DNA of 64,000 bases from Psammoneis japonica (GCA_008632985.1 QPGO01000019.1:124001-188000), one strand, 5' to 3'; positions 6,607-40,743 are shown, numbered from the stretch's first letter. The notes: generated by a model from the sequence alone, not told the origin. A program made the numbers and translations.

Positions 6607-6959
6607 CTTGCACCCCGATTACCGGTGGTGAAAAACTTGGCTGAAGTGTCAAGTTCAGGGGTGGAGAAGAACTTGAAGAGAAATCTCGGGTTGATTTTGT
6701 TGAGCTTGTTTGTCAGTGTGCATATTTTGCCGAATCCGTCGACTGTAGTGCATGATAAAAGAAATAAGTTGTTTGATTCGTCATCGATTGCACTTTTACC
6801 GTGAACCCCGGGTGAGTGAGCGAACACCGTTCTTACTGTAAACGTTGTTTGCGCTAGTCGGAATGCCACTCATGCAGATTGTTCACTGGTTCCAGACCAT
6901 TTTCACAAGTTCAGTGAACTGCCGGAACTTATGGACATCATTGTCTCTGATGGCACCAT

Positions 6960-7660
6960 CGAGACCATCAGGCAATGACTGTCTGGAGGCACAGGACTTG
7001 GCAGATCTGATGCTGACACAGCATTGAAATGGCTTCTCTGTCATGGAAAGGTCAGCGGATTGCTCAGAGAAGCACTGTGCATGTTTGTGAGTTGGTTGGC
7101 AAATGAGTCACCCCCATGGGCTGCCTGCTGTGCACTCATGGTGAAGCGACTCATCATGCCAGACAAAAATCTGGGCATCCTTCCAGTCAGCACAGCAGGG
7201 GAGGTTTGGCATTGAGCCGTGGCCAAAGCCATTCTCCTGGTTGCTGGAGCAAAGACCAAGGAAGCTTGGGGTGCCAGTCAGCCATGCCCCAGACTGGAAG
7301 CAGGCATCGAGGGTGCCATCCATGCATGAGCATGCTCTGGGAGTGACACAAATTCAAAGATGACTGTGGGTTTCTTTTTGTTGATGCCTCCAACAGGTTC
7401 AATGAAGATGGACACCTTTGGCCATCCAGTGCCTTGTTCAACAGTCACAAGTGCTGGAGCATCCTGATCATCCATGGAAACTTTAGAGCAGCCCTCATTT
7501 TGTTCACAGAGGTGTTCATGCAGGGCAGCCCACTTGGTGTGGCAGTGCATGGGCTGGGACTTTTTCCACTGGTCTGTTGCTTGAGTGAGCACTTTAAAGA
7601 CACACCCACCCCTCAGCGCACCAATGACTCAGCAGTGGCTGAAAAATTCAACACCTCATG
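6960..7660 (+). mobile_element. Degenerate CRE/SLACS-like non-LTR retrotransposon reverse transcriptase fragment
   Basis: Across frames: LANESPPWAACCALMVKRLIMPDK.LGILPV..GEVW, LEAGIEGAIHA, and MQGSPLGVAVHGLGLFPL (a QGDPL-like RT motif). Many stops and frameshifts, TA-depleted. Confidence 0.6.
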
Positions 7661-8057
7661 GGATTTTTCTTGGGGGGTCCCAAGACAAAGGATCCAAGCA
7701 TGGATTCAGAGTGCCAGCCTGTGGACAAATCCAAGAATGTCCCGGCAGCCCCAGAACACAACCTGAAAATGCCAAGACTCATGACCTCACAAAGGCCCTT
7801 TGGGGCATGGAGTTTTGAATCCATGGCACTGCCAAGTTGTGAGTTTCCATCCACAGCAGGTCTTGCCACCAGAAATTCATTGCAGCTGGAACAGACAAAA
7901 CTCTAAACCAAGCAAGGAGGAACCCAGGAGTGACTTGAATCCAAGGTTGGTTTGGGTCATTGTGTCAATTTCTCCTGTCAGGGTGGTGCTCATCACACAA
8001 AATCAACCTGGCTTGCCTCTTGGGCTCTTTCTCAAATTCAACCCCCCCCCCCCCCCC

Positions 8058-8227
8058 NNNNNNNNNNNNNNNNNNNNNNNNNNNNNNNNNNNNNNNNNNN
8101 NNNNNNNNNNNNNNNNNNNNNNNNNNNNNNNNNNNNNNNNNNNNNNNNNNNNNNNNNNNNNNNNNNNNNNNNNNNNNNNNNNNNNNNNNNNNNNNNNNNN
8201 NNNNNNNNNNNNNNNNNNNNNNNNNNN
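8058..8227. other. Assembly gap (N run) preceded by poly-C
   Basis: Run of n characters. Confidence 0.99.
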
Positions 8228-11039
8228 TCGTGTGTCATGACATTGGCGCTGCTGTTGTCATTCTTGTGAGCCAAGTGGCTCAAAAGCAAATTGCATCACA
8301 CATCCCAAGCAGAGCTGAGAGCACACACAATTGTGCGCAACAAACTAGAATCTTGGTCAAATCCTGTCAAGTTGCTGAAGGAGACAGAGTCCTCATCATC
8401 AAAAATTGTCCAAAAGCTCCCATGGGTTCCAAATGATGAGTCAGTGTTGCTCAAATGAGATGCCTTGTTGCTGGCTTCAGAGGTGCTGCTGCTCCCACAT
8501 TGCTGCTGCTGCACCTGTCAGGGTCAAAAACTCAGCTGCCAAAGAGAGAGTTGCCATTGTTCATGAACCAGCTCCTCTTGCCTTGATCTGTCAACTCCTT
8601 CATCTCCAACTCATCACAGTCAGCCACAACCTTGCAACAAGTTGTGCGCTTGTGTTCCTCATCTTGCTTGTTCTGAGCTGTGTGATTTGTTGCCACTCTT
8701 GCTCTGTCACAGGCCTGACCCACTCTTCATTGGCGCAGAAGTTGGTTTGCTTGGCAATCCACTCCAAGTCATCAGCCATGAAAAAGAAAAAATGAGTCAA
8801 CAAGAGAAGTCAACAAGAGATTTGCAGGCACCAGCTTTGCAGCCCAAGAGGGTCCACAAGCACCTCCTCTGCCAGGGCTTGCATGAGAGTCAGACCACCA
8901 AGGTTCCCAGTCAGAGGCTCCCTCATTTTCCCAACCCCAGCTGGGGCAGGGGCCTCTCCAGCTCAGAGTTCATTGTGGCAGCTCTGTTTTCTTTCTCTTG
9001 GCAGCCCAAACATCAGAAAGCAGCTCCATTCCCAGGCTTTTGTCCACAAACTTGAAGAGACAATTGTCATTCACAACATCAGCTTGCACCTTGGTGTTGA
9101 CAATTGAAGAGTGAGCTTTGGGAAGCACCTCCCTCTCTTTGATCTGGCACCAAATTTCTCCCAAGCTGAAACCCACAACTTGGAACATCTTGGCATTCAG
9201 GGCACAGGATTTGCAGCACTCAACTCTGTCTTCCTTGGGTCACAAAAGCACTTCAGCCCTGTGGGCATGGACAAGGTCATGCAGTGGGTGTCTTCAGTCA
9301 GATGGAACATGCACTCACAATCACCTCCCTTGCCTTCCCATGCCACCAGGATTCCAACCTTAGAGCCAACAAAGAGTTTCCCACTCCAGTGGCAAGCATG
9401 TCTCTGTGCTTGCCTTCAGTTCTCTTGACACTGCCATTGAGGATGCTGATTTGGAGTCCTGGGTGGCTCCTGCAGCCACCAGTTTACCTCCAGTGCCATC
9501 AGAAATTTGTGACCATTTTGCCTGTCACTTCTTTTGCACTGAAATGAGGTGAGCTTCCACATTGGCTGCACTTGCATCCATTTGCAGGAGACTGGCCCTT
9601 TCCCAACATTTGTCTGCTGAAAACCATTTTCTCTCTTGATCATTTGTGCAAGCTCACCAGCACCATGCAAATGACCTTTTCCTGCACTGCAATCCTCTCA
9701 GAGTGTCTTGACAAGAAAGTTGCAGCAAGGGAGATGTCCAGGCAGACAAGGCTCTCTCAGCCAATGAGAACAAAAATGTCAAGCAGAAGACTGCCAATGC
9801 AATTTTGAGGGTGCTGCTGTCAATGCATCTAAACCACATGTTGAGCCAAACAAAACCACAACAACCACTGGTTCAACTGGTGATGCACTTGTCTGTTGCA
9901 TGTCGTGCATGCACTGCTCTCTGCTCTGGCTTAGATTTGACAGTGCTGGCCTCATTGTGGAAGGCACTGCTGTGTCTGTCACCATTCAGCCCAGCTTGCA
10001 CAGTGCAAAACATCTGTTGAGCAACAAATGACAATGCAGCAGACAACACCACAACTTGCTTTGATGCTGAAACAAAGCTCAGCTGCCAGCTGCATGTTTT
10101 TTGCCCCCATTCACCCCCCCCCCCATCTGCAATCAAAGCCTCTCTCAAACACAGTGCATGTTTCCAAACATTTTTTCCAAACAAATGAAGAGAGATTGTC
10201 ATTGGTGCACATCCTCAGAATTCCCATGCAGTGAGGATTTGCATCATGCTCAATGATTGGTTCAGCCTGAGTCAAGTTGTCCCTGTCAAGTTTGTCAGGA
10301 ACATTTCCAGGGGACCAAGTGAAATCAGGAGTGTCAGGGATTGTTGACTGTGCTCTGCATGTTGGTGTGCTGGCACTGCGACATGTTGTTGGAGGGAGAA
10401 ACATCAATGGTCACAAGGCAATCACTTGTTCTTGCAACTCTTGCAGTTGTGACAGGCCCAGAAGCATCTTGCTGGTTGCACCATCACTGTTCTGCCAAGA
10501 CAGTGAGTGGCTGAGCAAGCTTGTCCTTCAGCTGGATTTGCTTGTTCCAAGGCCACTCAGCTGGAAAAACCAGCAACTGCCACCATCCCAAACACCCACA
10601 AATTGTTTCCATCGTGCATCAACCAAGCCTTTTGGGGTGCTGTCTTTGGCCAGTCAGCTGCCACTGCAGCTCTGTTTCTCTCCAGAAATTTCTCCTGAGA
10701 GTGCCTCATGACAGCAGGCATGGAATGAGCATTTGACAGGTGGCTTGCCTTTGGGTTCCAGGCCAATTTTGTGCACAATCCTTCAATGTAAATGTGTGAC
10801 ATCAACAACTGCTTCTTTGTGCTGACAATGAAGGAGTTGTTTTAATCTTGTTGTCTCTGACAACCTTGTCAACTGCCTTTTTTACAACACACTGTCCCCC
10901 ATTTTTTCATTGTCCTGGTCTCCTTTTGTGCCCCTGTCCATTGGGTTTGAGCAAGCTCAGCCTGCACTGCCTCCATGCAAAGCCAATTGCACAGTCAATG
11001 GCAAGCAGAACACCATGCATTTCCATGTGGATGAACTGT

Positions 11040-12000
11040 TGGCAAGCCATGTGAGCCTGAAAGCAAGCGATGACTTTCAAGCTGGCTGAACAAGATGCAT
11101 GGGAGCTGTGGCAAAGTTGTTGCAACATGAGGGAAGAAGCATGACTGCCTTGGCATGACCCTGGACTTCAGACACAAAGGCAAGGTGGGGGTCAATGCAA
11201 CCAACCACATTCACAAGATGATCCATCAAATCCCCAAGCCAAGGAAATCAAGAGTGTGGACACTGCCATGATGCTGTCTGGAGAGAACCCATTTGATGCC
11301 GGTGGCACAACATTGCTGGCCAACAAAGCAAAGACATTCCATGCATGGGTGGCCAAAAGACTGTTTGTGTCCAAGAGAGGCCACATGAATGCCCACCCCC
11401 CACTGTTGCCCCCAACCATTGCAGCATTGTTCACATGAGTCAGAGAACCAGCCAACAAGGATTGGGAAAAGCCATCCCATTGTGTCAAGCACCTGAACAG
11501 GACACCACATTGAGCGCAAAAGACCTCTCCAAGCAATCAAGCAGCATGTGGGCACATCATCATTTGCAGCACATCCTGATTTTAAGAGCTGTGTGGGAGA
11601 ATTTGTGACCATGGGCAATGGAGCAGTGCAAGCACAACGTTGAAACAGCACAAGCTTGACACACAAAGCAGCACAGAGGCTGAACTTGCAGGAATCAACA
11701 ACGCAATGACCATGATGCTGTGGATCAAGTTGTTCATGAAGCACCAAGGCCACCCAATTGTCAAGAACATCTTGTGCCAGGACAGCAAGAGTGACACACA
11801 AATGAAAACAGATGGGTGCAGGAGTGCTGGAAAGCAGCCCAGAGCACTCAACATTTGGCATTTCTTTGTTGCCAATTAGATCAAGAATGGCAACTTCAAA
11901 GTGCAGCACTGTCCAACCAATGGCATGCTGTTTGGAGACATCACAACCAAGCCATTGCAGGGCAAGAAATTTTAAAAGTTTGAACAAGCTGTTGAGGGCT
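11040..12000 (+). mobile_element. Ty1/Copia relic (RT C-terminus and RNase H)
   Basis: GKKHDCLGMTLDF (HDYLGM-like), FHAWVAKRLFVSKR, KLDTQSSTEAEL, ILCQDSKS, LNIWHFF and TKPLQGKKF motifs typical of Copia pol. Confidence 0.75.
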
Positions 12001-14064: not shown

Positions 14065-14535
14065 CAGCCACCTTGTTCATTGCCAAAAAAGTGCAGAAAA
14101 CGTTGTGAGAGTGCAGTGTGGATGAACTGACACTGCCAACAGGAACGGCAACATGGGCTTGCCAGCGCATCCAGCACCGCACTGATTCTGGAGCAGGCGA
14201 GTTTGTGGCAGGAGCTGCTGTTCCATCATTTGAATTGCTGCTGCTCTGTTCCACATCATTCATTGTCAAAAAGAGCAGAACATGTTGTGAGAGCACAACA
14301 CAGATGAACCAACACAACCCACAGGAATGGCAACATGGACTCACCAGTGCATCCAGCACGCTGATTCTAGAGCAGGCAAGTTTGCAGCAGCAGAAGTGCT
14401 GTTGCTCTGATCCACCTTGTTCATTGCCAAAAAGTGCAGAGCACATTGTGAGAGCACAATGCAGATGAGCCAACATGAGCCACAACACACACTTGCCAGT
14501 GCATTGGTGCATCCAGTGCCGCTGATTCTGGAGCA
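14065..14535 (+). repeat. Degenerate tandem repeat, about 3 units of ~170 bp
   Basis: Recurrent ccaccttgttcattgccaaaaagtgcaga...ttgtgagag...gcatccag...ctgattctggagca. Confidence 0.55.
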
Positions 14536-16500: not shown

Positions 16501-16990
16501 CTTGCTGTCAACACCCACCCCTCTCAATGAAAAATGCACCCCACACAGCAGCTGAAGTGCAAGATCAGCACACCCTGCAGAGAGGAAGACAGCTGTTGTT
16601 GAAGTGTCAGAGGACACAAAAAGAAACACTTGCTGTCAACACCCACCCCTCTCAATGAAAAATGCACCCCACATTGCAGCTGAAGTGCAAGATCAGCACA
16701 CCCTGTGGAGAGGAAGACAGCTGTTGTTGAAGCGTCAGAGGACACAAAAAGAAACACCAAGGAAAACCAAATGTTTGTTCAATGACAATGTGGTGGCATG
16801 CACACACACATTTGGGTCTGAACACCCAGTGGTGCAAGGGTGACCTCCATCCTGTCCACCTCCTTGACACCCCTTTCCTCAATGACAAATGCGCCCCGCA
16901 TTGTGGCTGAAATGCAAGATGAACACACCTTGCAGAGAGCAAGACAGCTGTTGTTGAAGCATCGCAGAGGGCACAAAAAGAAACACTGAG
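16501..16990 (+). repeat. 128-bp tandem repeat (two close copies plus one diverged)
   Basis: cttgctgtcaacacccacccctctcaatgaaaaatgcacccc...ggacacaaaaagaaaca at 16501 and 16629, with a diverged copy at ~16865-16990. Confidence 0.8.
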
Positions 16991-19144: not shown

Positions 19145-19206
19145 CACAGTTGCAAAAATTAAGTCACAAGTTGGGCCACAATGTGCGTTGCATTTTCACA
19201 CAACAT

Positions 19207-25200: not shown

Positions 25201-26895
25201 CTGTGCCTGCTGCCTGCTTTGGGTTCAAAGATTGCCATCTTTGCATGGTCAGATTCCCCCTGTTTTGGACTGGTCATTCCAGAGACATGATGGGTCATGC
25301 ATGAATGTGACAGACTTCAATGACATCTTCTTCAGACATTTGTTGAGAGTGCAGTCACTGCATTCACACATTGTCTTGGAGAACATGGATGAATTAGAAG
25401 CACGTGGATTGGCAAGGTCCTTGTGATGGGGTGCTGCTGCACGGGCTCAGAATGCAGAGGTTCTTGAACCAGACGTCAACTGGGTTGATCATTGGGGCAC
25501 TGGCATGGAGTTTGTGGTTGAGGGTCCAATGCAAGTGGCACATTCCAAGTGCCCACAGAAGTTGGAATCATTTTTAAGATTTTTCCAGGTGCTGCAATCT
25601 TTGAGGTTCTGCTTTGGTGCTTGAGTGGACAGGTGCCAAGCAGGAGCAGTGGATGCCATCCAAGCAGTTGCTGGCTCTTGGTTGGGAATGGGTGGGTTCA
25701 AATTGTTGAACAAAAGTGGGGGCTGTGATGCCACAGATGCAAGAAGGGTGTCATGGCCAGCGGTTTGTGTTTGGACCTGGTTGGTTGCATCTCAGGCTGT
25801 TGAGCAACTCCGTTGCTCTTTCTTGCTGTTGCATTGGCTGGAGCAACAGATGCTCATGATTGGCAGTCATGTGGCATGGCCCAGCTTCTGTTTGAATTGC
25901 AAGCTCCTGATTTTGATGCGTCTGCACAAATGAACCTGAAGGGGCTTCCAGTGTTGCTGGGGGCCAAATTTCTGACCAGGGTTTGTCAACCATCAGAGGG
26001 CTGCACCGCCATTGTCAAATGGAAGTGTCAGCATGTGTTCAAATGTCCAGTGGTCTGAGATTTAGAAATGAGACAAAGATCTAATCTGTGCCTTCAGGTT
26101 CACCAGACACTGAGTCCAGTGTCCAGATCATGGGTTGTGATTGGACATTTGTCGCCGACTCTTGTTTTGTTGGTCACACTTCATCAACTTGTGACCATTT
26201 CTCTCAAGCTCTCTTGTCAAACATGAAGCACATCACTTTGCAACAATTTGAGTCTAGAATGGAAAGGAGAGCACTTTTGAGAATGTGACTTCTGCGGCTC
26301 TTGACATGTGCAAACACAATCGTGTGAACAATGTTTGCAGTGGTTCAGATTGATTGCTTGCGCTGTTGACAACAGCTGTGGAGGTTTGGATCAAAATTTT
26401 TGTTCAGTGATTGTCTTGCTTCTTGTTGCCAAAACACTTGCATGCTCTCCTTCCTTTTCACTCTGACATCGTCTCATGAAAAGTTGTGCCTTTGAAACTT
26501 CGGCCATTTTTTCTTTCACTCCCACCCACCTGGTTGTGAGTCCATGGATGAAAGGGTGTCCTGGCCAGTGGCTCACACACACTTGACCTCGTTGGTTGCA
26601 TCTCAAGCTGTTTGGCAATTCTGTTGCTCTTTCTTGCCATTGCATTGGCTGGAGCAACAGGTGCTTGTGACTGGCAGTCATGCGGCATGGGCCCGGCTTC
26701 CGTTTGAATCGCGAGCTCCTGATTTTGACACGTGCCCACACAACCAAATCCAAAGGGGGTTCTGGACTTGCTGGGGGCCAAATTTCTGGCCAGGGTTTGT
26801 CAGGCTCACACCACCATTGTTCAGCAGAAGTGTCAGTGTGCATTGAAATGTCAGCGGTCTGACATTTGCAGCAGAAATGAAACGAGGAACCAGAA
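19207..26895 (+). mobile_element. Ngaro/PAT-like tyrosine-recombinase retrotransposon (DIRS order), degenerate, with split direct repeats A1-ORFs-B1-A2-B2
   Basis: A1 ~19207-19508 matches A2 ~26088-26394. B1 ~25740-26080 matches B2 ~26545-26895. RT motifs SFFVAPKGSDDIW, IAADVFFLSDD and LGIQD...PGAWAG. RNase H motifs GFADASGMDFG, TDNGVAE and HVAG...DGLSRG. YR-region motifs GDHLVCPF...HANLDAF and RSL.WGA..A. Confidence 0.75.
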
Positions 26896-27224
26896 CAGAC
26901 ATCAAAAATAAAAGGGACATTTCCCCGCAAACGACATGTGAACAAAAGGTCTAACTTGTCTGTCCTGCTGCAGGACGCAACAGCCAGTTCAGCAATGAAA
27001 CATGTAAAAAGAAAAGATCAGTGCGGTGTTGCGGGCAATGAAGGGCAACAAGGTGCATGGGAGTGACATTTGTTTCTCCTTTTTAAACGTGTTTTGCTGT
27101 GCAGCACTCTTGGCAAACATTCGTCAGCTTCTTGATTTTTGGCGTTTAGCGTTGCAATTGTTGCAGTGCACGAGACTTTCATTGACCACTCAGTGGTTGG
27201 TGATTGCAGACTTTTTCGTGTCGG

Positions 27225-27278
27225 TCCGGCAGTCGGGGGGTCGGGCAGTCGGGCAGTCGGGGGGTCGGGCAGTCGGGT
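27225..27278 (+). repeat. GGCAGTCG/GGGGGTCG 8-bp tandem repeat
   Basis: ggcagtcggggggtcgggcagtcgggcagtcggggggtcgggcagtcggg read directly. Confidence 0.8.
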
Positions 27279-27959
27279 TGTCCGTCTGAATTTGAAAGTG
27301 TGTCCCTCGGATTTTGGAACGGGATGGGTTGTTTGGTGCAGATGAATTCTTCGGATTCATGGAATGATCATTGAAGACATGAGAGGTCGTGGGGACATCC
27401 TAAAAAATTGATAAATTCCCTGCGACGGGTGCGTGGCACGGTTTTTCAGGAGAGCTCGAAAGTCATCAAAAATTGGGATTGCCAGCGTGGCATGTTGAAA
27501 AATGCACTCAGATGCAAACAAAGACAATTTGTCGTGAATTCTACACGAAACAGTCACATTTGGGAAAACATGTCGAACAACAAGTGAGTTTGTGCGATGC
27601 GCTGTTATGGCGATAAATTGGAAAAAAAAAAGAGTGTCCGTGCACCTCGCTGCAGCCCCAAAAATGGCATGAGACATCAAATGTGACGGTCATCCGCGTC
27701 ACCGGTGCGGTGGCCACACCACTCAGCCGCCACAATGCCGGCCCCGGCGGTGGGGCCCTGCGCACGTGCAGGCAATGCAGCATGCAACGGCACACACCCA
27801 CACCCACAAAGAAAGACAAGTGGTCAATGCTCCCCGCAGGCCTGGTCTTTCGGCGAATTGCGGCATTTGAGTCCCACTTTGTTTGGAGAGATCTCTCAAT
27901 CTCGGCAAGTCTCATAAAGCCAATCGAACATTGACTGACTGGGATGTTCATTCGCAACA

Positions 27960-30485
27960 ATGTTTGCCAGCAGAGCAGTTCTTCTCCTGCTCGCTGCAGC
28001 TTTTGCTCCGCAGAGGAGCGAAGCCCAACAGGTGCAGACGGATGAATCGAGCTCACTTTGTTTTGGAGTGCTTTGTTCTTGCTTCCTTTTTGATTTCTAA
28101 CTGGATTTTTCCAAATGAATCCATTGCACAAAGGCAGCAGATGACTGCGCTCTGGAAGAACTTCTTTTTCTTGGCAATCTCCAGCGGGAACTTGGCACCG
28201 ACATGGGCATCCCGGGAATCGTGGAAAATGCCGTGTGCATGAATGATGCTGCCATGGAACCTGGGCTTGCATGCACCTCCCAAGCTGTCGATCTAGCATC
28301 GGCTCTCCCACCCACAAATGTTGCGGGCTGCATCATGGAAGGAGATGATGTCAGTTTCCTTTTGCACTTCCAGCTCAACACAAATTCAGGTCAACGCTTC
28401 GACGTTGGCATTTGGTTTTCAGAAATGGGTGCAAGCGCCCAAACAGGCGAATGCACTGTGGTGAATCTTCCATGGGGGCAGGCACCAACTTACATTGGCT
28501 TGGATGTGACGAGCAACCCTTTTCCAGGAGGCAGCGGAAGTGCCCCTCCATTCAACATACAAGATGCGTGCGGAGACCTTGACAAAAGTGCTCAGACATT
28601 CCCTGTCTTGCTGACCATCCCCTTGACGGTGAAATGCGTCGATCTAGTTGGCAATGATCGAATGTTAGATGCACCGCACTGCACCAGCTGGAGGACTTCA
28701 GGAATGACTGAGAATGCCCCATGCACATCTCCTCTTGAAACTTTTCCTCTTGAAAAAAGCATGTGCAAATGCAACGTGTTAATGCTCCCCATCATGGTGC
28801 CAGGCACGCCGAGTCCCACGCCATCCCCTGCCCCGAGTCCGACGCCATCTCCAACTCCAGCTCCTGCCCTGAGTCCAACGCCATCTCCAACCCCTGCTCC
28901 TGCGCCCAGTCCGACGCCATCTCCAACTCCAGCTCCTGCTCCGAGTCCGATGCCGTCCCCCACACCAGCGCCAATGCCGTCTCCAACCCCTGCTCCTGCT
29001 CCAAGCCCGATGCCGTCTCCAACGCCTGCTCCTGCTCCGAGTCCGACGCCGTCCCCTGCACCAGCGCCAACACCGTCACCCACTGTGCGGAAGGGTGCTT
29101 GCTGCCCTCTAGCTGGATCCAACAGGGTTTGCTTCAAGGGAGCTGAAGAAGAATGTCTTTCAAATTACGGACTCTGGCAAGGGAACAGCGTGACGTGCAA
29201 GGACGTAGATTGTCCGACATCACCTCCTGCAAGCTCTCCTGCCGAAAGCCCCACCATGGCTCCAACTGACCCGGCTCCGACAGCAGCTCCAACGACCCCT
29301 GCTCCTGCCAGAGCTCCCACACTGCCACCGATGAAAGTTGATCAGAGTCCAGGAGCATGCTGCACCTTGTTTGATGGATGCAAGTTTCTTTCTCAGGAAA
29401 CGTGCGCTTTGGGTGGTGGTGCATTTACAAAACCAAACCAAAAGTGCAAGGACACTGAATGCCCCAACAAGGGAGCTTGCTGCTTGGAGGATGGATGCAG
29501 CAAAACTTTCAAGAAGGAGTGCACCAACCAAGGAGGCAAGTTCAAGGGATTTGGCATGCCGTGTGAACCTGGTTTGTGCCCGACCAAACCACCAACTCCG
29601 GCTCCTGGCACCGCAGCACCTACGCAGAAACCCACCGTTGCTCCTCCTCCGACTGGAGCATGCTGTGATGTTGAGGATGATAAATGTGAGCAAACCACAG
29701 AAGAAGATTGTGACACGGGAGCATTCTTGGGGCTTGGAGTCAAGTGCAAGCCGGGTGTTTGTCCCACAAGGACTTCTCCAGGAGCCTGCTGCCTCAAATC
29801 TGGAGAATGCCGTTTCTGGTCTCAACGGACATGCGCTGCAAATGGAAACTTCTTCTTGGGTCCTGGTGCTTCCTGCAAGAATGTGGTGTGCCCAGGCAAG
29901 ACTCCAAGCCCTGCCCCTGCTCCGGTCAAGAAACCGATTGGAGCCTGCTGTTTTGAAAGTGGTCTTTGCCGCAACCTCATGCCTGCCGTGTGCAGGAAGA
30001 AGCATGGCAAGTTCATCGGTGAAGGTGCCATGTGTGCGAAGGACAACCGCTGTCCGGTTGGACAATGCGGCAAGCCCGGTGCGTGTTGTCTTGTGAAGAA
30101 AAGGCAGTGCAGGACTCTCCCTGAGAAGAAGTGCAAAAAGAAGGGTGGACATTTTGGTGGTGAAGGTGCCAAGTGTAGCATGAAAACGTGCCCTGCCGCA
30201 CATGGTGCCTGTTGCTTGCCAAATGGAAATTGTGCTGTGTTGAAGAAGACTGCTTGCGTCAAGAAGAAGCAGGGAAAGTTTGTCGGATTTGGCACCAAGT
30301 GTAAGAAGAAAACCTGCGCCTCCAAACCCGGTGCCTGTTGCTGGAAGAATGGCAAGTGCATGATGTTCAAACAGTCCAAGTGCCACACGCGTGGAGGAAA
30401 ATTCGTGGGAGCCGGTGTCAAGTGCGGCAAGAACACATGCCCCAAGAGCCCTGATCACAAATGGTTTGTGTTGAGTGTGAGATGA
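27960..30485 (+). pseudogene. Copy 2 of the secreted GACC-repeat gene. ORF open but TpA/CpG-hypermutated. Exons 27960-28031 and 28134-30485
   Basis: Collinear with 3862-6606, including upstream sequence and intron. Numerous TA->TG/CA and CG->TG/CA changes. Intron donor gtacgg->gtgcag. Stop TAG->TGG with read-through WFVLSVR. Expression is unknown. Confidence 0.8.
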
Positions 30486-32230
30486 TGTACACATCTTTTG
30501 TCATTTGCTTGCAATGCAATGAGCAACTCATTTTATCTTCATCCATTCAACCAATTGTGCCTTTGTTCTTGCATTGAGAAACATTCTGTTGCTTGCAGTC
30601 CTCAACATCAGATGGTGGGGGCAGTGGATGCAGAGGGAAAATGTCAGAGACGTGCGACACCGCTGATGAAACCAAGCCCGGTTCATGCAGAGCATGTCTT
30701 TTAACGCAGCGGTCTAGTTGCTGCACACATTTGACTTTGACAAAAAGCCTCCCATCCTGCTGCCAGGTTTTTGAGCTGTCTCCAAACTGTCTGTTCAATT
30801 GCTGCAAGAACAAAGACTGTCAAAAATGTGGCAAATCAAGACATGAAAGCAAGGAGCTTCTTGCTTGCTTGTCCCAGTTTCACTGCCAATGACAAGTCTG
30901 ACTTCAGCCACACGAGAGTGGCAAATCCAGCATTGAGCAACCATTGCTCCAAAAACAAAGTGCTCAGGTGTCACAATGTTCCAAACAAGAACATCTCAAC
31001 TGAGGACTGGAACGCTGAAACAACGGCCACAATGGAACGAGGTGCCAACTCTTTGCTGAAGGCAGTGGTGCCATGCTCTTCAGGAAAAGAGACTCTGTTC
31101 TTTTCAAGAAATTTTGCAGCAATTGATGCTCTGTTGCCCAACCCAAATGACCCAGATTCAGACTTGCAAGAAGAAGAGGTGCTGCTTCACAACAAGGGCA
31201 CTTGTTCTTTTCTGACTGACGTGGCTCTCAAGAGTCATTTTGCAACTCCAGCACAACTCCAATCAATGGACATCCATGGTCAGGGCATTGTCGGCAATTA
31301 AATCAAGATTGCACTCACAGAACTTGGCTGTGCAAAACAATGCTGTTGATTGTGCCTTGCAAAAGTTTTGCATGAAATCTCTTGCATCATTGCAGGCCAC
31401 AGGCACCAGGCACCAGGCACCAAACTGGGCGACAAGGGAAAAAATGCTCGCCATTTCCAAAGTGCCCTTTTTCTTGACTGTCAAAGTGTTTGACACACAC
31501 TTTGGTCTTCAACACAAAGTTGTTTGCCTGAACAACACTGTGGTGGATTTGTCCCAAATGTCATTGATGATGCTTGGCTTTGCGTCAGGAAGCTGAGTGG
31601 GACCCAAAAGCTCTGTGACATGTGACTTGTGCCACAACTCATGATGTCCAATTGTCCACCCTCAATGAAGTTCACACAACAACCAATGGATGTGCAGGAC
31701 ATCAAGCACCAGTGCTCTCTTGTTGTGAAACCTTTTAAATCTCTTGCACAAGAGCTCCCACTGTGGGAGACAGCACAGTGCCGTCAATGGCATCCAGCAA
31801 TGCACCGCCATTGGAGCTGTCAAGTGCGCCTGTTTGGACGCTGTCAGATGCCCCTTTGGAAGCCCCAGGTGTGGAGGACAGCACAGCAGCATGCTGTCAG
31901 AAACTCCAATTCATCCACCAATTTCATGGCTCCATCTGCATTGCCCCTCTGTTGTGACAATCCTTGATGCGCTGCTCAGTTGTTGTGGCCCACAACTCAG
32001 AATCTTCTGCAGAAAACCCTGAAAGTCAAACCAACAAAAATCATGAGTGATCCATTTTTTGCTTTTTGGAAGTTTTGCAGAGGAGTCTGCACCCACAGCA
32101 ACATGCCAGCAATTGCAGCCTCGCTGACAATGAACAAATTGCAATGACAAGAAAAACAAAGCACGCTTTTTGATGGTGCTTTCTCCGACATTCAATCTTG
32201 GTGTTGGCACATTGGCCAGTGCTTCAACAC

Positions 32231-32399
32231 TCACAGACTGCCAGCATTGGGACAATCCAGCAGACATCTGGGACAGATGACAATCGCGCACTGGATGAGA
32301 AAAAAAGGGAGCAAAAGAGAGATCATCGGATCTCTCCATGCTGTCTGTGCCAGTCTGTCTGACACAAGGGAGTGCACTCCCCATCTCGGATGTCTGCCA
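32231..32399 (-). repeat. 3' LTR of Copia element
   Basis: Direct repeat of 39153-39321, adjacent to the polypurine tract. Confidence 0.9.
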
Positions 32400-35300
32400 C
32401 CCTCCCCTGATGAGCAATGCAATGCTCATCAAGAAAGAAAGAGATGATCCAAATAAAAAAGAGGATCAGAACAGCAGAACAAAAAAGAGGACCAGAAAAG
32501 AAAACTCACCAAAGACTTGATCCGCAAACACGATGACAATCAACGGCAGTGTTCCATCAAATGGCGGGCATGGCGGGAGTGAAGCATCCAACCCACAGCC
32601 TTGGTTAGTGCGTCAGCAGGGTCAATGACACCCGGAATGTGTCAAGTGACAATTTTGCCTGTGTCACACCAGTCTTGGATTGCAAAATGTTGAACATCAA
32701 TGTGGTGGGATTGCCCCGCAGGCACCTTGTCATCGACCATCTGGATGGCAGAGGAGCCGTCAATGTGCGAGGGAGCAGGATCTTGTTGGGAAAAACCCAG
32801 CTCTTCAAGGACCACACAGAGGCACAGAGTTTGCTTTGCACCAATGACAGCTGCAAGAAATTCAGCTTCTGTGGAGCTGGTGGCCGCAGTTGTCTGCGCA
32901 CGGCAACAGCAATCAGCTGCAGCACCAGCAAGGACATGTGCACACCCGGCAGCAGACCGCCGATGCCAAAGTTCATTGGCATGTGCTGCATCAACAAAGC
33001 CAAGAAGTTGGAAAAGACCATCAGCACAAGGAAAGTCAGGAAGGGATGGATCATCCTCAAGCCACTCAAAGGCACGAGGAGGTGAACCTGGATCCCGCTT
33101 GGTCTTCTCATGCGTCAACCCCCAATGCTTGGTGTGGCACAAATGCTTGGCCATGCGCTTGAGAGACCCACAATGAATTTCAGCCAGAGCCTTGGAGAAC
33201 TTGGACAAGGTGACAACAGGAAGACCGACATCCAAGCAGCAACACGAACAAGCAAAGACCAGCTCACCCAAGACAGAATGACAAGAGAAAAGCCCTGGGA
33301 TTCAGAGAGAGTGCCACACTCGGGAGCACCTTTTCTGCTGGACCTTCAGCAGCACACAAATCTGCAATGCAATCAACCGGCACAGGCGCAGCCTTGAAAT
33401 CAGTGTCACATTCGCAGCAGGAGCATCCCATCCATGAGTCTTGAAGACACGATCGAGGCAACTTGCAACATTGATCGCAATCAAGTCATCATTCTGGATG
33501 ACATCAATGCCACTGAATTCAGCAACCAAACCCAAATGCTTGACTGGGGGGGTGTCTTGATTCTCCATCTGGAGGGCCTTTCCAATGTGGTCACAGATCT
33601 CTTTTGCAATCTTCTCCAAGGGACAAGCAAGTGCAAAATCATCAACTTGACAGAGCAATTGGACCTTGACACCATCATGTTCACCAGAGCAGATGCACTT
33701 GTCATGAGCAGCATTTTGGAAGAGAAGTTTTGCACCCAAGAGAGTCGAATTTATGTGCTTTTCCCACAGGACACCAGCTTCAGGATGGCCTTGGAGGGCA
33801 TGCTTGAGCAAAAGAATGCAATGGCGGGGCACTTTCTTGCCAAAATGACTTTCATGCCACATGCAGCACATGCATCATCAACAGCAACAAACACTGGTTG
33901 TGAAGGTGTTCCACACAAGACGAATGCGTGGAGGTCAGTTTGTGCAATGCTGGCACAGCCGACTTGGATTCATCTCCACATTGTCCAGAATGACATTGTC
34001 CATCTGGCTTTGCCATGCAATCCCAATGTGGACACATGACATTTGCTCCAGGGGGACGCGGTTGTGGAGGACCATGCGTGCCAAGTGCACAAAATTGGCC
34101 CAGTTGATGCTTCTCTCCTTCCTCCCATTCCGGCCATGTGTCAAGTTCATGGAGCTTGGCACGGGTGAGATGGTCAAGGGCAGCTTCTTCCGGAGTGAGA
34201 GCACAGGAACCAATTGCATGAAGATGGGCACAAAAGACATCCATTGGAATGGCCTCATCAGAGAAATCATCTTTGGGGTGGAGAAGAGCTGCAATGGATC
34301 AGACATCCTCCAAGGTGAGCTCGAGCACATGGGAGTCATCTTCCATTGAGTCTGGATCAAACAACTCCACTTCCTCAAATGCTTTGTTAAGAGTTCGGGA
34401 GTCCAGATGTCTTTCCGGTGCAAAATCAATCTCAAAAGTTGGAATCTCATCACGAAAGACCCACAACAGTGTGTCTTCAGCATCTTGTGGTGCAAAGACT
34501 TCCTGCTTGTTGACAGAGACAATGCATGCACCCATGAGCTTTTTTCAAGCAGCGCAAAGGGATGAGAGTGATGAGGCCGCAGGATTGCGCTGCTTGATTT
34601 CTGAGATGCAGACATGATCTTAAAGCACACTGGGAGAAGCCAAATCTGCAGGTGGGGTCCTTGGGAGGACATTTCATGGTGCAAGCAACAGTCTTGGCAA
34701 ATGGGTTTGATGAAGAAGCAAACTCAGGGACAGTTGTGCCCTGTGTTTCAGCCGGAAAAGGCTGACCATTTTCCACATGTTGCAAATGGGTGGCATTGGG
34801 AGGAAGTTGATCCAAAAACAGGTCATTCACACCCTCATCACACCGCACATGCTTGACTGTCTTGACCTTGTCAATCTCAGGATCCCACCAAAGAACATTC
34901 TTCAAGGTGTTTGGGAGACACCCAAGGAATGCGCATTTCTTCAAATTTGTCCAGAACGTTGCAAATGGGTGGCATTTGGAGGAAGTTGACCCAAAAACAG
35001 GTCATTGGCACCCTCATCACAACACACATGCTTGGCCATCTTGACCTTGTCAGTCTCAGGATCCCACCAAAGAACATTCTTCAAGGTGTTCGGGAGACAC
35101 CCAAGGAATGCGCATTTCTTCAAATTTGTCCAGAACGTGGCAGAACAAACAGCAGATCATCTGGCGACACTCGACATCCAAAAGTCTTCAAAGCAGCAAA
35201 ATTCTTGATCTTTCCAGTGACAAGGGCAATGGGGGATGCATCTTGATCTTTTGCAGGAGTGGCATTCTTGACACGGAGGTGATGGCAAAAAGCACAAGGC

Positions 35301-38300
35301 CAGAATCTGATTGGGAGGTTGGCAATGATTAAAATCGCACAAATCGGGTTCTCGACATTCAAACATGATGAGCGTTCAACAGGGCCACATTGGTTGGATG
35401 CACCAGTGCCAGAAGGACACATGTCATGCTGGAATTCTTGTTCAAAGAGGTCACAAACTTTGGGGCTCTTGTGCAATTCCCCACCTTGATCCAAGGTTGC
35501 ATGTTTGTCATGACAATTTGGCGAGTGTCGATCCAAGAATTGGCAAATCCACTTGAGAGGACTGGCTCAAGAGACCCGCGCAACACCATGAAGCGTGTGT
35601 GTTTTATGATCATGGACAGTGATCCAACACGTTTCACCATCACAACCAAGACAGTCAGACTTGCAGTCTTCATTCTTGGAAGCCTGACCAGCAAAAGCAA
35701 AATCCACAGCAAGGCCTTGTGTTGGGTCCAGCGGGCATCTTGACTTGCTTTGCCTGAATGCACGTGGGACAAGCACCAAGGACCGGGTTGGCATGCCTGA
35801 ACTTGGGGACTCCTTTGATGTGCTTGTGAGCGTTGCACAAGCAATGATTGCTGGGATGTCCAAGGCAGTGGTGCCATGGGAGATGTTCAGTCTCAACTTT
35901 GAGAGAGCGGGCCAGAGCATGAGTGGGCAACTGTGGCAATGTGTGTGCAACAGAATTGCGTTTCATTGAAAACAACTCAGCATCCATCATTGGGGGGTCA
36001 GATGGAGTTTGTTGAACATTGACACAGAAGACAGCACGTTGGCATGCACCGTCAATGTCACCAACCAATGTCGGGTCAGGTGCTGAGTGTGCTGTGCAGA
36101 CATCAGTCTTGGACGGGGAATCAGAGGCTGTGCAAAGACCTTTCCATGCCAGAGGATGCCATGGACAACTGCCTCTTTGGTGTCAGTCAAAGCAGCACAT
36201 TGGCACAGGTCTTCTCAAGAAGCTCGGAGCGAATGACCTGAGGTTTAAAACCAGAAGCCCACGCAAAATCACGTTCATCAATCAAGGTGGAATGCAGGCT
36301 TGGATGGCAAAAGGTGTGCACAAGAAGAAAGCAGTCAGCATTCTCTGCGGGTGCTTGTAAATGACCAAAGCCATGAGGAGCCATGTCAGAGCTTTCAGCA
36401 GCAGAGAGCATCTTCAAAGGACAGGGATTGTCCGGTCCAAATGGGGTGCAAGCATGGAGAAGGTTCCATTCTCCTGCACAGAACACCCAAGCACCAGCAT
36501 CAATCTGTGCACGGTGTGACATTGAATCATGGAGCACATGATTGAAAGGGACAATGGGAGTGTTCAATGATTCAAAAGTTGCAGGTGATTTTGGTGGATA
36601 AAAAATCAGAGAGACACACACTGCACTCAATGGCAACAAGTGCTGGCTGGCAGTCATGTTGAGGTGCTCAAAGTCTTGATCTTGGTCAGTGGACAGAGGG
36701 TCATCAAAATCTTGTGCAGGAGGTTCATGAAGAATGGGTTCCCTCCCCTGATTAATGTCATCAGGGTCATCATCCGGAATTGTCTTGACATCCGGAGTGC
36801 TGGCCTTCATCGGATCCAAAAGAAGGTTTGCAAATGACACACATGAAAGAGGTGGTTCAGCGGAAGGCAACGAGTTGGTTAGACCCTCTTTTGCAGTTGC
36901 CCCACTTGCAGGAGTTGATTTTGGATTGGAGAGAGATGGGTGGCATTGTTTGTCCGAACGCAACAATGGCCCCAGGAAAAATCCTTCTTGGGCTTCTCAG
37001 ACTTGAGTGCATCTCAAGCATGCTGATCGCATTGAAGGAATTGGAAGAACCAGATCAGGTGAGTGTGCAAGCACTCAGCATTGTTCAACACTGGGCACTC
37101 ATGAAACAAGTGACCATCGCCACAGACAACACATGGGCAAGTCTGTGCAGCAGCAGGTGATGACTCAATCCTGCAGATGCAAGCCTTGCAAACACCATGC
37201 AGTGCTTGTGCTTCATCATCCAGAGGGATTTCCACAGCAGCAAGTTCATTTGCAAAATGCTCCATGACATCCACAGGTTCTTCCGCAGGAGGAGAATTGG
37301 TTTCTGTTGGAGTCTCTTCTTCAACAACTGGAGGTGGAATCAGACGATTCGTCTTCAGGCAGCAAGTCCAGACCTCGAACAGGAGCTGCAAGAGAAGGGT
37401 TTGCCGGGGGACAAGGAATCTGATTATGGAGACAATGTGGAGGACACTTGGGAGGGTCCTTGACACACAGATCAGGGCTGTCCGGTTCCTTGAGTGTCAC
37501 ACTGATGGTCTTGACAATCTTCTTCTGGGCAAACTTGTGTTGCTTGTTCTTGTCTTCCCAAGCATTCACTGTTTTGCAGTGTGGATGCTCTCCATGCCGG
37601 GCATTGCCAAGAAAAATGTCCAGCTCACCAGGATCATCAAGGGATGCATCAACATTGGAGATGATTGCCTGCAGTTGAAGGCAGTCTCGGAAAAGAGCAC
37701 AGCAACTAAGAATTGTGAGGTTGTTTTGGTGGGGGCAGCTCTTGATTAATTCACACGGACGCTTCATCCAAATTGGCAGGACATCAAAGAGGATCATCTT
37801 GAGGGCAGCATGTCCATCTCCATGGCACTGACAAACAATGTCAGGATGCTTGGAGTTGGCTGGAAAGATTCCAACCTTCTGAATGCACTGGAAGACAGTC
37901 AACTTCATCCGGTCAAGTGGTGCTCGCATCCGAAGTGGCAGGTCATCTGCAGGATCATTGCCACTCGTGAAGCCCCAATTTCTGCCATCCTTGATAAAAC
38001 ACCAGAGGGGGTGCATGCACGTGCCACAAGCCGAGGCTTGTTGGGTTGCTGCAGTGTGCCATGCACGGATTCCTTGAGGAGAGATGTTGTCACAAGCAAG
38101 AGGGTCGTGAAGAAAAGACTTGGCATCCCAGTCAGTGCAACAGACAAAGAGAGAACCATCAGCAAGCATGAGATGCTCTGCACCATCTTCACAGTGAAGA
38201 TTTCCAGACTTGCAGGGCACCAGTGACTTCCCTGACACCACTTTCCCGGCTTCCTTGTGTTGACAGCAAGCTGGTGCAACCTTTGGAAGTCCTTTTGGGT

Positions 38301-39152
38301 CAAAGGTGCACACAGCACTGGCGGCAGTTGAGGAAGAAGCCACAGTGGTGGCAGTCATGGCAGAAGGTGCAGAAGATGGTGCAGGAGGGGTGACCAGGCA
38401 AATGAGTGGCCAAGGCCTCGGCAAAGTCTTCAGGAGCAGCACCTGCAGTGGGAGCCGGTGGAGGTGCAGAGCTTGAGGTTTGAGATGACTTTGAATGTGG
38501 AACATTGGACACATCGTCCCAACATGCAAAAGATGGAAAAAGGAACACAGTCTCAACACAGAACGTCATGGTGTCATGGCCATCTGAAATTGCTTTGATC
38601 ACAGCCTTCTGAAGATTGGCGAGGTTTGGACAAATCAGAGAAGCTTCAGGAGTGGCCACAAAGAGAGGAGCTTCATCCACAATCAGACCAATCTGTGTGA
38701 GATCTTCAGTCAGTGCAGCCTTGGGGGTGATGAGGTCTTGAACAATCTTGTGACAGAGAGCAGCAACAGCATCACTCTTGAGGCCTTGAGGAGTGAATCC
38801 ATCCAGAATTTCTTCAGGAGCAGGCATCTTGTTAGAATGAAGGACGTTCAGGCAATGATGGGCATCAGGCAAGTGATGCTGAGGGTTAAATTCAACCAGT
38901 GTCGACTTGATCTTGGTCAAATCGACAGCATTTGGGGTTTTGTTCTTGCCATCATTGTGCGAAAAAAAATCAAATTCCCATGCCAAGCTCTGGTGTGTGT
39001 TCTACGGTGGTCGTTTGATCACAAATCAAGAGGTGAAAAAACAGCTGCAACAATGATGATGATTTCAACAAAGAAAAATCACCAAACCACACAGCGGGCG
39101 TTGCAGCGGATCGGCACAGAGGAAGACAAACGGCACACTGCTGCTCATGACC

Positions 39153-39321
39153 TTGCAGACTGCTGGCATCAGGACAATCCAACAGATGTCTGGGACAGAT
39201 GACAATCGTGTGCTAGATGAGAAAGAAAGTGGGCAAAAGAGAGATCATCGGATCTCTCCGTGCTGTCTGTGCTGGTCTGTCTGACACAAGGGAGTGCACT
39301 CCCCATCTCGGATGTCTGTCA
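39153..39321 (-). repeat. 5' LTR of Copia element
   Basis: Direct repeat of 32231-32399, followed on the minus strand by a PBS-like sequence and gag. Confidence 0.9.
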
Positions 39322-39860
39322 AACACTGGCGCGTGGTTTTCAGAAACAGGTTCGAGCACCCAAACAGGAGAGTCTGCACTGTGGTGGACCATTGGCACCA
39401 TGCACAAGAATGACAATGCATGTCCAATTGAGCTTTGCAGCATGCCCAGCGAATCATGCTGCTCAGTTGAAAAAAGGCGGTGCAGAGCTCTTGAGGAGAA
39501 GAAGCGCATCAAGAAGGGCGGGCATTTTGCTGGCAAAGGTGTCAAGCACAGCAAGAAATTGTGCCCGGCCACCTGTGGTGCACACTGCTTGCCCAAAAGA
39601 TCATGTGCCATGTTGAAGAAAAACACTCATGCAAAGAAGAAGCACACGGAATTTTTTTTTTTAATTTGGCAAAAGAGCAAGTGCAAGAAGAAGTCTTGCA
39701 CCTCCCTGGGCCTGGGTGCCTGTTGCTGTTCCGGAAGAATGGCAACAAGCATGCACAATGTTGAAAGGCTGCAAGTGCTGCAAACACAGAGGAGCATTTG
39801 TTGGAGCTGGCATCAAGTGCCACAAAAAGCCTGCCCCAAGATCTCTGATCCCAAGCAGCC
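39322..39860 (+). pseudogene. Copy 3 (fragmentary) of the GACC-repeat gene, split by the Copia insertion
   Basis: Joining 32214-32230 to 39327 gives GQCFNTGAWFSETG (copy 1: [14 protein letters not shown]). It then jumps to IGTMHKNDNACPI...KKGGHFAGKG...CPATCGAHCLP...GACC...GAGIKC.KKPAP. Confidence 0.75.
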
Positions 39861-40743
39861 ACACCCCAATTGAGAGGTGCAGAGAAGACCTTTTGAAGAA
39901 AATTCTCAGGTTGGCTTTGTTGAGATTGTTTGTCATGTGCGCACAATTTTGCCAAGTCAGTCAACAACAGCGCATGGCAAAAAATTGAGCTGCATGATTG
40001 GCTCTTCACAAGCTGCACTTTTTGCCATGAAGATTGGAAAATGGGGTGAGTGAGTGCATGCCATTTGTGTGTTGTTGTGCTCACAGCAACAAAAGAAACA
40101 AAAGCAATTGCTGCACTCATTTCAAAGGCAGGGCGTTCAAAACTCACAATGCTGCTCTGGCCATTGCTCATTTTTCCAGCTTTCCTTTCTTGTTTGTCAA
40201 CCCTCTTGTGATGACCACATTGTGCCAGCTTCAGTTTGCATCTGTGAGAAAAGTGCCCAGGGGATCCTTGGCTTGTGACACGGTGCTGTAACAACAGACC
40301 CCATTGCATTGACTCATGTGTAGCTGGACTGCAGATCGAAAGAATTTAGTTCAAAAGATGTGACAGTCATGGTCATAGGACAACATGAAAATTTCTCTCC
40401 TGTAACGAAAAGTTTAACGCTTTTCTCTTTGCTTCTTCTACTATTTTTCCTTATGTATATTTCGAGTAATCTGTCTCTCTGACATGGTGAATGCCAGTAT
40501 CGCCCATCATTCACATTCGACTATTTATATGTGAATGAAAATTTGGGTGGATAACACAGTCTTTGTTTTAGATGTCCGGTATTCAATTTTATATTCAGAT
40601 CGCAAGATGTATCAAGGTCTTTTTTCGGCCCCACAAGTCATTCAAAATGCCATTTTCTTGTCGGAACAGGTTACGCAACTTACGCACACGCACAACAAAT
40701 ACCGATAAAACACTTCTTTCTCCGCACTTACGCAGTGTTCACA

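Follow-up and report, generated by a model that had tools for sequence, protein, structure and literature searches.

Probable in-place rewriting of TpA to TpG or CpA across silent, repeat- and duplicate-rich domains of a likely diatom genome, with a deaminase as the proposed agent

What removes a single dinucleotide, TpA, almost completely from tens of kilobases of DNA when the genes alongside retain it? The question is raised by a 64,000-nucleotide stretch of a Psammoneis japonica assembly (GCA_008632985.1 QPGO01000019.1:124001-188000), which we term the window. An earlier note on this DNA had pointed to a near-absence of TpA over about 33 kb, and again at 1-520, 42530-48150 and 52310-64000, and had proposed a repeat-directed mutator acting on A:T pairs at TpA. 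The explanation that we consider likely is that TpA is being rewritten in place to TpG or CpA in silent intergenic DNA rich in repeats and duplicates, and we propose a deaminase for this role. Comparisons within the sequence make it highly probable that the underlying process is real and heritable, that it acts at the level of DNA and that it is specific to TpA.

Dinucleotide observed/expected (O/E) ratios were computed per kb and pooled over the 63,830 non-N bases of the window (170 positions are N). Every kb from 7001 to 40000 has a TA O/E of 0.00-0.15, with TG at 1.35-2.26 and CA at 1.19-2.22; the per-kb TA values of the gene islands are 0.34-0.76. When pooled, the four TA-poor domains (1-520, 6931-40288, 42530-48150 and 52310-64000) comprise 51,020 non-N bases, i.e. 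80% of the window, and hold only 214 TA steps (O/E: TA 0.064, CG 0.316, TG 1.77, CA 1.74), versus 499 in the 12,708 bases of the gene islands (TA 0.586, CG 0.918, TG 1.23, CA 1.12). The main domain (6931-40288; 33,188 non-N bases) is the most extensive: its TA O/E is 0.051 (CG 0.231, TG 1.76, CA 1.78), and the 112 TA steps observed stand against 1283 expected at the island O/E, a deficit for which the Poisson probability underflows. The domains and islands are otherwise nearly equal in GC content (0.487 vs 0.482) and in AA O/E (1.19 vs 1.17). All four intervals of the earlier note were thus recovered, as were the abundance of TG and CA in them and the normal TA of the islands, and the TpA O/E inside and outside the domains proved clearly dissimilar.

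The edges of these domains are sharp, being resolved to 32-75 bases, and fall about 50-500 bases from the ends of genes. The left boundary of the main domain lies at 6856-6930 (TA sites at 6834, 6839 and 6855, then at 6930, 7484 and 7595), approximately 250 bases past the stop codon of a gene that we call gene A. Its right boundary lies at 40289-40320 (TA sites at 39662 and 40289, then at 40321, 40347 and 40376), approximately 400 bases before a contig of sequencing run X2 that covers a gene for an M6 metalloprotease. These edges agree with the limits of 6870 and 40300 noted earlier. The second domain (42530-48150) sets in less than 50 bases past the end of the same X2 contig. The first (1-520) begins before the window start, with 250-base TA counts of 0 and 1 followed by counts of at least 10, and the third (52310-64000) runs past the window end, with a per-kb TA O/E of 0.03-0.27 over 53001-64000.

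The direction of change can be read from gene A, which is present both in an island and in the main domain. Copy A (3813-6778, + strand) has an intact open reading frame (ORF; 4021-6606, 861 aa) and a TA O/E of 0.55-0.76. Copy B (27911-30468, + strand; ORF 28119-30485) lies within the main domain and is 88-90% identical to copy A (3813-6610) by self-BLAST. As copy A possesses the full ORF and a TA content typical of genes, it can be used as the unmutated reference, and copy B is the changed copy. Their alignment has 2558 columns with 215 mismatches, which fall into the following classes: TA in A replaced by TG (31) or by CA (27), as opposed to a single TA in B facing TG in A; CG in A replaced by CA or TG (44), with 7 in reverse; other transitions (50); and transversions (55). 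Taken as whole dinucleotides, the 76 TA steps of copy A correspond in B to TG in 30 cases and to CA in 27, and 15 are kept. The change of A to G depends strongly on the preceding base: it is seen at 31/76 adenines after T, versus 5/198 after A, 11/179 after C and 5/173 after G (21/550 for these three pooled). Likewise, T to C is seen at 27/76 thymines before A versus 8/493 elsewhere. Hence, the A:T to G:C transition spectrum enriched at TpA, which the earlier note had anticipated, is indeed found, and with 57 changes of TA to TG or CA against one reverse its direction is opposite to that of fungal repeat-induced point mutation (RIP), as had also been claimed. By rough arithmetic, 75% of TA steps and 32% of CG steps (44/136) have been altered in copy B, with transitions at about 2% of the remaining sites.

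The two outcomes, TG and CA, are almost equally frequent (30:27) and are not clustered by strand (35 runs vs 29.4 expected, z +1.5), which suggests that duplex DNA was hit many times, independently, on one strand or the other. There is also a hint in the sequence of a wider context, with a preference for TAC: C stands directly 3' of the changed A in 40/57 events, as against 22/57 on the unchanged strand (Fisher p 0.0013), and among the TA steps that survive in the domains the share of TAC/GTA is 0.19 versus 0.33 in the islands, with that of TAA/TTA being 0.48 versus 0.21. The changes in copy B extend into the flanks on both sides, and copy A, 21 kb away, was untouched. A third, heavily decayed copy of the 3' part of the gene, copy C (39334-39999, + strand), lies at the right edge of the domain and is 67% identical to 6161-6778 of copy A and 69% to 30094-30460 of copy B. 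The family is present in multiple copies, with a summed word depth of approximately 270-470 over copy B versus about 60 for unique DNA.

As TpA is a palindromic step, its conversion to TpG or CpA amounts to a change of A to G on one or the other strand. Under our proposal, the adenine in 5'-T-A would be deaminated to hypoxanthine on either strand and fixed as G at replication, by an enzyme that might be modeled as an ADAT2/TadA-type deaminase turned on DNA. Whatever the agent, TpA changes tens of times faster than other substitutions arise, with a slower decay of CpG to TpG or CpA alongside, and the process may serve genome defence. In the tRNA substrates of TadA and of the ADAT2/3 deaminase the target A34 follows a near-universal U33, and the T-A(-C) context of the changes in copy B fits this U33-A34 substrate. 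While these parallels make an adenine deaminase an attractive candidate, we name it as the agent only tentatively, with a little less than even confidence.

Among the alternatives, the one that survives best places the attack on thymine: a TET/JBP-type or other modification of T at TpA, akin to 5-hydroxymethyluracil, would turn T into C through mispairing or faulty repair. Dinoflagellates carry 5-hydroxymethyluracil preferentially at TpA and TpC, and on a palindromic TpA a change of T to C on one strand is a change of A to G on the other, so that all the above counts fit equally well and a TAC preference on one strand is simply GTA on the other. However, 5-hydroxymethyluracil forms a base pair with A, and no near-quantitative conversion of T to C is known to result from it. 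Moreover, the authors who recently reported a comparable process in the chlorarachniophyte Bigelowiella natans favour adenine deamination in the main text of their preprint, likewise as a proposal. We therefore consider a thymine target improbable, though less so than any of the other alternatives.

The loss of CpG runs separately, and more slowly, in the same domains. The reduction of CpG described by the earlier note holds for the pooled domains (CG O/E 0.316 vs 0.918 in the islands); it does not hold evenly across them. The CpG O/E is 0.02-0.19 at 7-26 kb (0.33 at 15-16 kb) and 0.2-0.9 at 26-40 kb, and at 47-48 kb it reaches 0.99 while the TA O/E is 0.05. The converse is seen in metagenomic loci that encode relatives of a Copia-like protein of the window: six of these (L061, L067, L040, L002, L009, L014) are CpG-poor (0.05-0.25) with ordinary TA (0.49-0.70), the extreme case being L061 with CG at 0.05 and TA at 0.70. 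Presumably, hosts of the L061 type methylate these elements but are without the TpA process. As CpG is intact in a TA-poor stretch of the window and relatives are CpG-poor with TA present, the two decays are separable. Their order can be read from two TA-free relatives, L065 and L078, whose mismatches are mainly at CpG, which implies that TpA was erased first and that the decay of CpG continues. Deamination of 5-methylcytosine (5mC) would account for the CpG component, with its excess of CpG to TpG/CpA changes in copy B (44 of 136 CG changed vs 7 reverse) and the same excess of TG and CA. It covers only that component, however: the loss of TpA is faster, is present where CpG is intact and is absent in the CpG-poor L061.

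This separability bears on a second alternative, in which T:G mismatches arising from 5mC deamination recruit mismatch repair together with an error-prone enzyme of the polymerase-eta type, which would introduce A to G changes at WA (A preceded by A or T) during patch repair. TpA and CpG are lost in the same domains, and polymerase eta does favour TA within WA. Yet AA steps are unaffected, both in the paralog comparison, where the A to G rate after A is a small fraction of that after T, and in their O/E, which is the same in domains and islands; the loss of TA precedes and exceeds that of CpG, both in copy B and at 47-48 kb; and the relatives L061, L067 and L040 have lost CpG without losing TA. 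Such a coupling of the two decays is in our estimate very unlikely.

The timing of the TpA changes is indicated by a retroelement within the main domain. Two 166-base direct repeats, 89% identical and 6.9 kb apart (32234-32399 and 39156-39321, both - strand), each have the six bases AACACT outside them, resembling a target-site duplication, and hence appear to be the two long terminal repeats (LTRs) of one Copia-like element. Decayed Copia-like coding remnants lie between them (32582-36182, - strand), with matches to RVT_2 (33305-33874, - strand; E 2.5e-05) and gag_pre-integrs (35673-36182, - strand; E 8e-05) that are below the Pfam cut-offs. The LTR pair differs at 18 positions, 10 of which belong to five doublets with CA in one copy facing TG in the other; this is as expected if an ancestral TA (or CG) became CA in one LTR and TG in the other. 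Given that LTRs are identical at insertion, such differences argue for change after integration, in DNA. The same class of doublet dominates throughout the repeat pairs of TA-poor DNA (3113 columns with 503 mismatches, some of the high-scoring segment pairs overlapping), in which 81 doublets of CA facing TG are found versus 18 of all other adjacent double transitions.

A third alternative is that the pattern was written in RNA: ADAR-like editing of double-stranded retroelement RNA followed by reverse transcription and integration. Copia-like elements are certainly at hand, and ADAR favours U before the edited A, as the Discussion of the B. natans preprint points out. Nevertheless, changes made prior to integration would be common to both LTRs, and the five doublets by which these differ are a pattern that editing before reverse transcription cannot produce. 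Furthermore, the duplicate of a host gene was hit along with its upstream and downstream flanks, whole domains of 5-33 kb with mixed content were erased with edges unrelated to single elements, and ADAR does not reach about 95% of its potential sites. This origin is accordingly hardly tenable. We also rejected the native composition of foreign DNA as an explanation, as the paralog and LTR tests show mutation.

The TpA process leaves its mark on the encoded proteins, in that it deprives them of all tyrosine codons, including the one for the Y of the reverse transcriptase YxDD motif, and also erases the words TATA and AATAAA. In the less decayed of the Copia-like elements, a polyprotein remnant that runs past the window end (59637-64000, + strand; tblastn match to residues 1-1532 of the related polyprotein P0127), conserved tyrosine columns are occupied by Cys or His. 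Through its ORF 62681-63685 it can be assigned to a large Copia-like family (3668 library proteins at E <= 0.001), and this ORF was aligned with 41 homologs covering most of the query, chosen among the 150 matches listed. At the eight columns with Tyr in at least 60% of these 41, the window has Cys in four, His in one, Trp in one and Tyr in two, and its other conserved residues are mostly retained. Its composition is shifted in keeping with this: Cys 4.2% versus 0.9% in the homologs, His 6.0% versus 3.3% and Tyr 1.2% versus 3.6%. Direct cases of the replacement are CAxYAK of the homologs as CAICAP, EYxTF as ECEVF and SVYSG as SVCSG, and the YxDD motif reads ECVDD, ACVDD, CHIDD and CHLDD at its occurrences in the window. 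The motifs by which the earlier note had illustrated Cys or His in place of Tyr are both present: DIGNAHLE at 63703-63726 (+ strand), where the intact relatives P0128 and P0139 have DIGNAYLE; and HDCLGM at 11140-11157 (+ strand), in a decayed Copia-type remnant whose surrounding ORFs have no Pfam match. In the paralog pair, the tyrosine codons of copy A are found in B as His (five), Cys (one) or Tyr (two), and its TAG stop is TGG. Unlike RIP, the process makes no stop codons: as TAA and TAG cannot arise, long stop-free frames persist in decayed DNA on both strands (e.g. 5869-6618, and many within 6931-40288), and 163 ORFs of at least 90 aa overlap 6870-40300.

The TpA-free state is also found outside this assembly. 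Among the 150 matches listed, three homologs are free of tyrosine (P0142, P0246 and P0274; Cys 3.6-4.2%), these being from Logan and ENA assemblies. Of 80 metagenomic loci encoding relatives, two are TA-free, namely L065 (O/E 0.02) and L078 (0.06), and the other 78 lie at 0.31-1.00. These two are 95.8% identical, are located on differently prefixed contigs and have a CpG O/E of 0.43-0.44; their 49 mismatches include 20 of CG facing TG or CA, 6 in three doublets of CA facing TG, and 3 of TA facing TG or CA. Within the sequenced material itself, run X1 yields contigs (word depth about 60) that agree with TA-poor stretches to within 0-6 differences, without bubbles and with no TA at these sites. 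At 90% or greater likeness 2020 of them fall on 26-44 kb, and their summed depth in the thousands implies that a large part of the domain is present in many copies per genome. The differences between the X1 contigs and the window are predominantly transitions (A>G 42, C>T 48, G>A 45, T>C 31; each transversion class 2-7). They include doublet changes of TG to CA at 32174-32175 and 37921-37922, and exchanges between CG and TG or CA at 32122, 39646, 40017 and 43679; variation between assembly and run hence bears the same signature at pyrimidine-purine (YpR) steps. These differences may represent alleles or, at 37921, near-identical repeat copies.

The earlier note had allowed for a base-calling artefact or a non-heritable mark, i.e. 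sequencer error at a modified base in TpA, to which errors of assembly may be added. Although we are dealing with a draft assembly that contains a gap, and the agreeing run may be its source, we regard this as next to impossible: a symmetric mark would give strand-conflicting reads rather than ancestral TA sites fixed as TG or CA in a ratio of 30:27, the contigs of about 60-fold word depth are without bubbles or TA at these sites, the fixed outcomes vary among repeat copies and between the two LTRs, coding sequences carry the corresponding changes of Tyr to Cys or His, and TA-free relatives occur in the assemblies of other projects.

How does this process relate to known systems? The closest is the TpA-targeted hypermutation of integrated viral DNA in B. 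natans (Mettrop et al., bioRxiv 10.64898/2026.01.13.699255), which renders outdated the earlier note's statement that no characterised pathway is known, as the conversion of TpA to TpG or CpA was measured there de novo. According to the main text of that preprint, two integrated viral regions mutate about 1000 times faster than the remaining genome; 230 of the 231 single-nucleotide mutations in these two hypermutable regions of mutation-accumulation lines were A to G or T to C, all on TpA; 124 clusters depleted in TpA and enriched in CpA and TpG are found genome-wide and are enriched in reverse-transcriptase domains, DDE domains and unannotated ORFs; and a hypermutable insert of a nucleocytoplasmic large DNA virus (NCLDV, giant virus) has a rho of 0.45, with the cluster cut-off being 0.43. 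An ADAT2-like adenine deamination is proposed by its authors.

The likenesses between the two cases, as far as the preprint's main text allows comparison, are: the near-restriction of A to G and T to C changes to TpA; delimited regions that contrast strongly with the rest, here within a single window; and the depletion of TpA with enrichment of CpA and TpG. They differ in the following: the host is here probably a diatom, i.e. a stramenopile, with intron-poor genes, and there a rhizarian; the depletion is far deeper here, with an O/E of 0.05 in a 33-kb domain and TA-poor DNA making up 80% of the window; the targets that can be recognised here comprise LTR retrotransposons and the duplicate of a host gene, with no viral gene recognised, those there being viral inserts (NCLDV, virophage) or foreign DNA of other kinds; a strong decay of CpG is co-located here and receives no mention in the abstract, Results or Discussion of the preprint; and the rate was measured de novo there, while here the signature is known from sequence. 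The window displays the same signature and is probably a further case of the kind of process described only in 2026 from B. natans, differing in host, depth, targets and CpG decay. A search of openly accessible literature, covering main texts in the case of bioRxiv, retrieved no report of the erasure of TpA to TpG or CpA in diatoms or elsewhere other than this preprint. One further candidate was set aside: the hypermutation discussed in passages of the SPLASH preprint concerns immunoglobulins.

RIP of ascomycetes changes C to T at CpA, so that TpA and stop codons are generated and the DNA becomes AT-rich, and it mutates both duplicates. Like the process in the window, it confines transition hypermutation, in a dinucleotide context, to repeats and duplications, inactivates transposons and leaves sharply bounded blocks of aberrant composition. 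The chemistry here is the opposite of RIP, in that TpA is removed, GC is left at 0.49 and neither TAA nor TAG can be formed; copy A is untouched and there are no strand-coordinated runs. RIP itself was therefore rejected, given the 57 changes against one reverse, the lack of AT enrichment and the sparing of one duplicate; it is a functional analogue that is chemically opposite. The deaminases of animals that restrict selfish elements, i.e. APOBEC3 on retroviral cDNA and ADAR on dsRNA, act on single-stranded cDNA or RNA before integration and leave strand-biased changes of G to A or A to G. Base deamination directed against selfish or viral nucleic acid in a dinucleotide context, as well as the 5'-U/T preference in the case of ADAR, is common to these and to the process proposed here. 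They are unlike it in that the latter acts after integration, on both strands equally and on whole chromosomal domains.

As to targeting, genes are spared along with short stretches on either side of them, the sparing of copy A while copies B and C were hit argues against a mechanism guided by homology alone, and we infer that targeting follows the silencing state or chromatin of the domain. The domains would be silent, intergenic DNA rich in repeats and duplicates; diatoms methylate transposons, and the co-located loss of CpG suggests that the domains are methylated and silent. The repeat-directed mutator of the earlier note thus stands in part: a heritable, local change of A:T to G:C at TpA, made in DNA and falling on repeats, agrees with the evidence, but transposable elements (TEs) are not its only targets, as a host gene copy and its flanks were also hit.

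Several points weigh against this reading. Most of the domain is devoid of any recognisable TE or viral gene, with only three of 147 scanned ORFs having a weak Pfam match, two of them Copia-type. Single-copy stretches at 90% or greater likeness, with a depth of about 60-78, are present at 26000-26600 and 30808-32009, so that not all of the domain is repeat. The notion of silent chromatin is itself drawn from the co-located loss of CpG. TpA being palindromic, the sequence cannot tell whether A or T was attacked. The signal for TAC comes from 57 sites in one Pro/Thr-rich gene, the diatom affinity from the relatives of three genes at 30-52% identity, and run X1 may be the assembly's own source, in which case its agreement is weak support.

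The annotation of the domains illustrates the first of these points. Pfam scans of 25 and then of 147 ORFs gave only three weak matches in the main domain, i.e. RVT_2, gag_pre-integrs and a chance-level TrAA12. No viral families were found among the 147 ORFs scanned, where decay hides families. Of the window, only 32582-33817 and 59637-63998 were matched by tblastn with 15 full-length Copia polyproteins. The annotation of TEs and viruses fails in such DNA because tyrosines are missing and Pfam matches are lost.

The window contains a set of natural experiments: mutated and unmutated paralogs, an LTR pair, and sharp edges beside expressed genes. From these, specificity, direction, timing and relative rate can be fixed without bench work, which defines the task of a candidate enzyme. 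As far as sequence comparison can carry it, they demonstrate the specificity and direction of the process, its equal use of the strands, its timing after integration, its sharp edges and its separability from CpG decay. In the literature covered above, a process that strips silent DNA of TpA had not been described before the 2026 report on one chlorarachniophyte; the same signature in a far more advanced state in a probable diatom would extend it to a second supergroup and to a major primary producer of the ocean, and would show retrotransposons and duplicated host genes to be targets besides viral inserts. Such DNA would mislead dinucleotide-based binning and gene finding, with many spurious genes predicted in its TA-poor stretches. 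An enzyme with such a specificity would be of interest to base-editing research. A bolder extension, which we consider doubtful but worth stating, is that a chromatin-guided DNA adenine deaminase is a widespread and perhaps ancient defence of the SAR clade (stramenopiles, alveolates and rhizarians), represented in diatoms and chlorarachniophytes, complete over most of the intergenic DNA here, and betraying by its TAC preference a descent from a deaminase of the tRNA anticodon loop (U33-A34). If true, this would be a natural A-to-G base editor of double-stranded DNA with dinucleotide specificity, by which every TpA is erased together with all Tyr codons, signals of the TATA and AATAAA type and all but one of the stop codons, with expressed genes left untouched even where a paralog only 21 kb distant has been rewritten.

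The host is probably a diatom and not B. natans, judging from the genes of the islands, whose ORFs are long and intron-poor. An M6 metalloprotease (40707-42484, + strand; PF05547, E 2.5e-10) has one GT..AG intron at 40879-40969: the X2 contig joins 40707-40878 to 40970-42484, and as the 91 bases skipped start with GT and end with AG it represents a spliced transcript. Run X2 hence resembles a transcript library. Its listed pieces on TA-poor DNA are only short mismatched ones at 27.3-31.1 kb, and, being one small run, it is uninformative on expression there. No contig of run X3, the third of the runs compared, all of them from one sample, matched the window. A further island (48662-51984, + strand) has an AAA_16 ATPase (48662-50737; PF13191, E 5.9e-16) followed by an ORF at 50677-51984. 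Every named eukaryotic relative of the M6 and AAA_16 proteins comes from a diatom taxon, with identities of 30-49%: Asterionellopsis glacialis, Synedropsis, Proboscia, Cylindrotheca, Seminavis, Attheya and Bacillariaceae. An Atlas look-up with the AAA_16 protein gave family-level leads only, and the protein database yielded no match of at least 90% identity, so that the proteome of this probable diatom would not be publicly available there. The Sulfotransfer_4 gene in the first island (856-2037, - strand; PF17784, E 3.6e-05) has a TA O/E of 0.66 and had no match in a homolog search at E 1e-10. A tRNA scan of the window found none.

The protein encoded by copy A is rich in Pro and Thr (152 and 117 residues, respectively) and in Cys (65), with Cys-patterned modules at its C-terminus and 12-60-base tandem repeats in its gene (4708-5219). 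A Pfam scan of its 861 residues recovered no family; the protein might be secreted or part of the cell wall. The assembly gap in the main domain (8060-8227) is immediately preceded by a poly-C run (8040-8227 for both), i.e. the assembly breaks at a homopolymer in TA-poor DNA. At the end of the second domain, a 151-base direct repeat of 99.3% identity (48145-48295 and 48600-48750) lies upstream of, and overlaps, the start of the AAA_16 ORF; the sole difference between its copies is a TA facing TG or CA. Finally, two-copy tandem duplications are present in TA-poor DNA at 34779-35142, 16501-16757 and 56580-56865, with units of 179, 128 and 147 bases, respectively, that are 82-96% identical.

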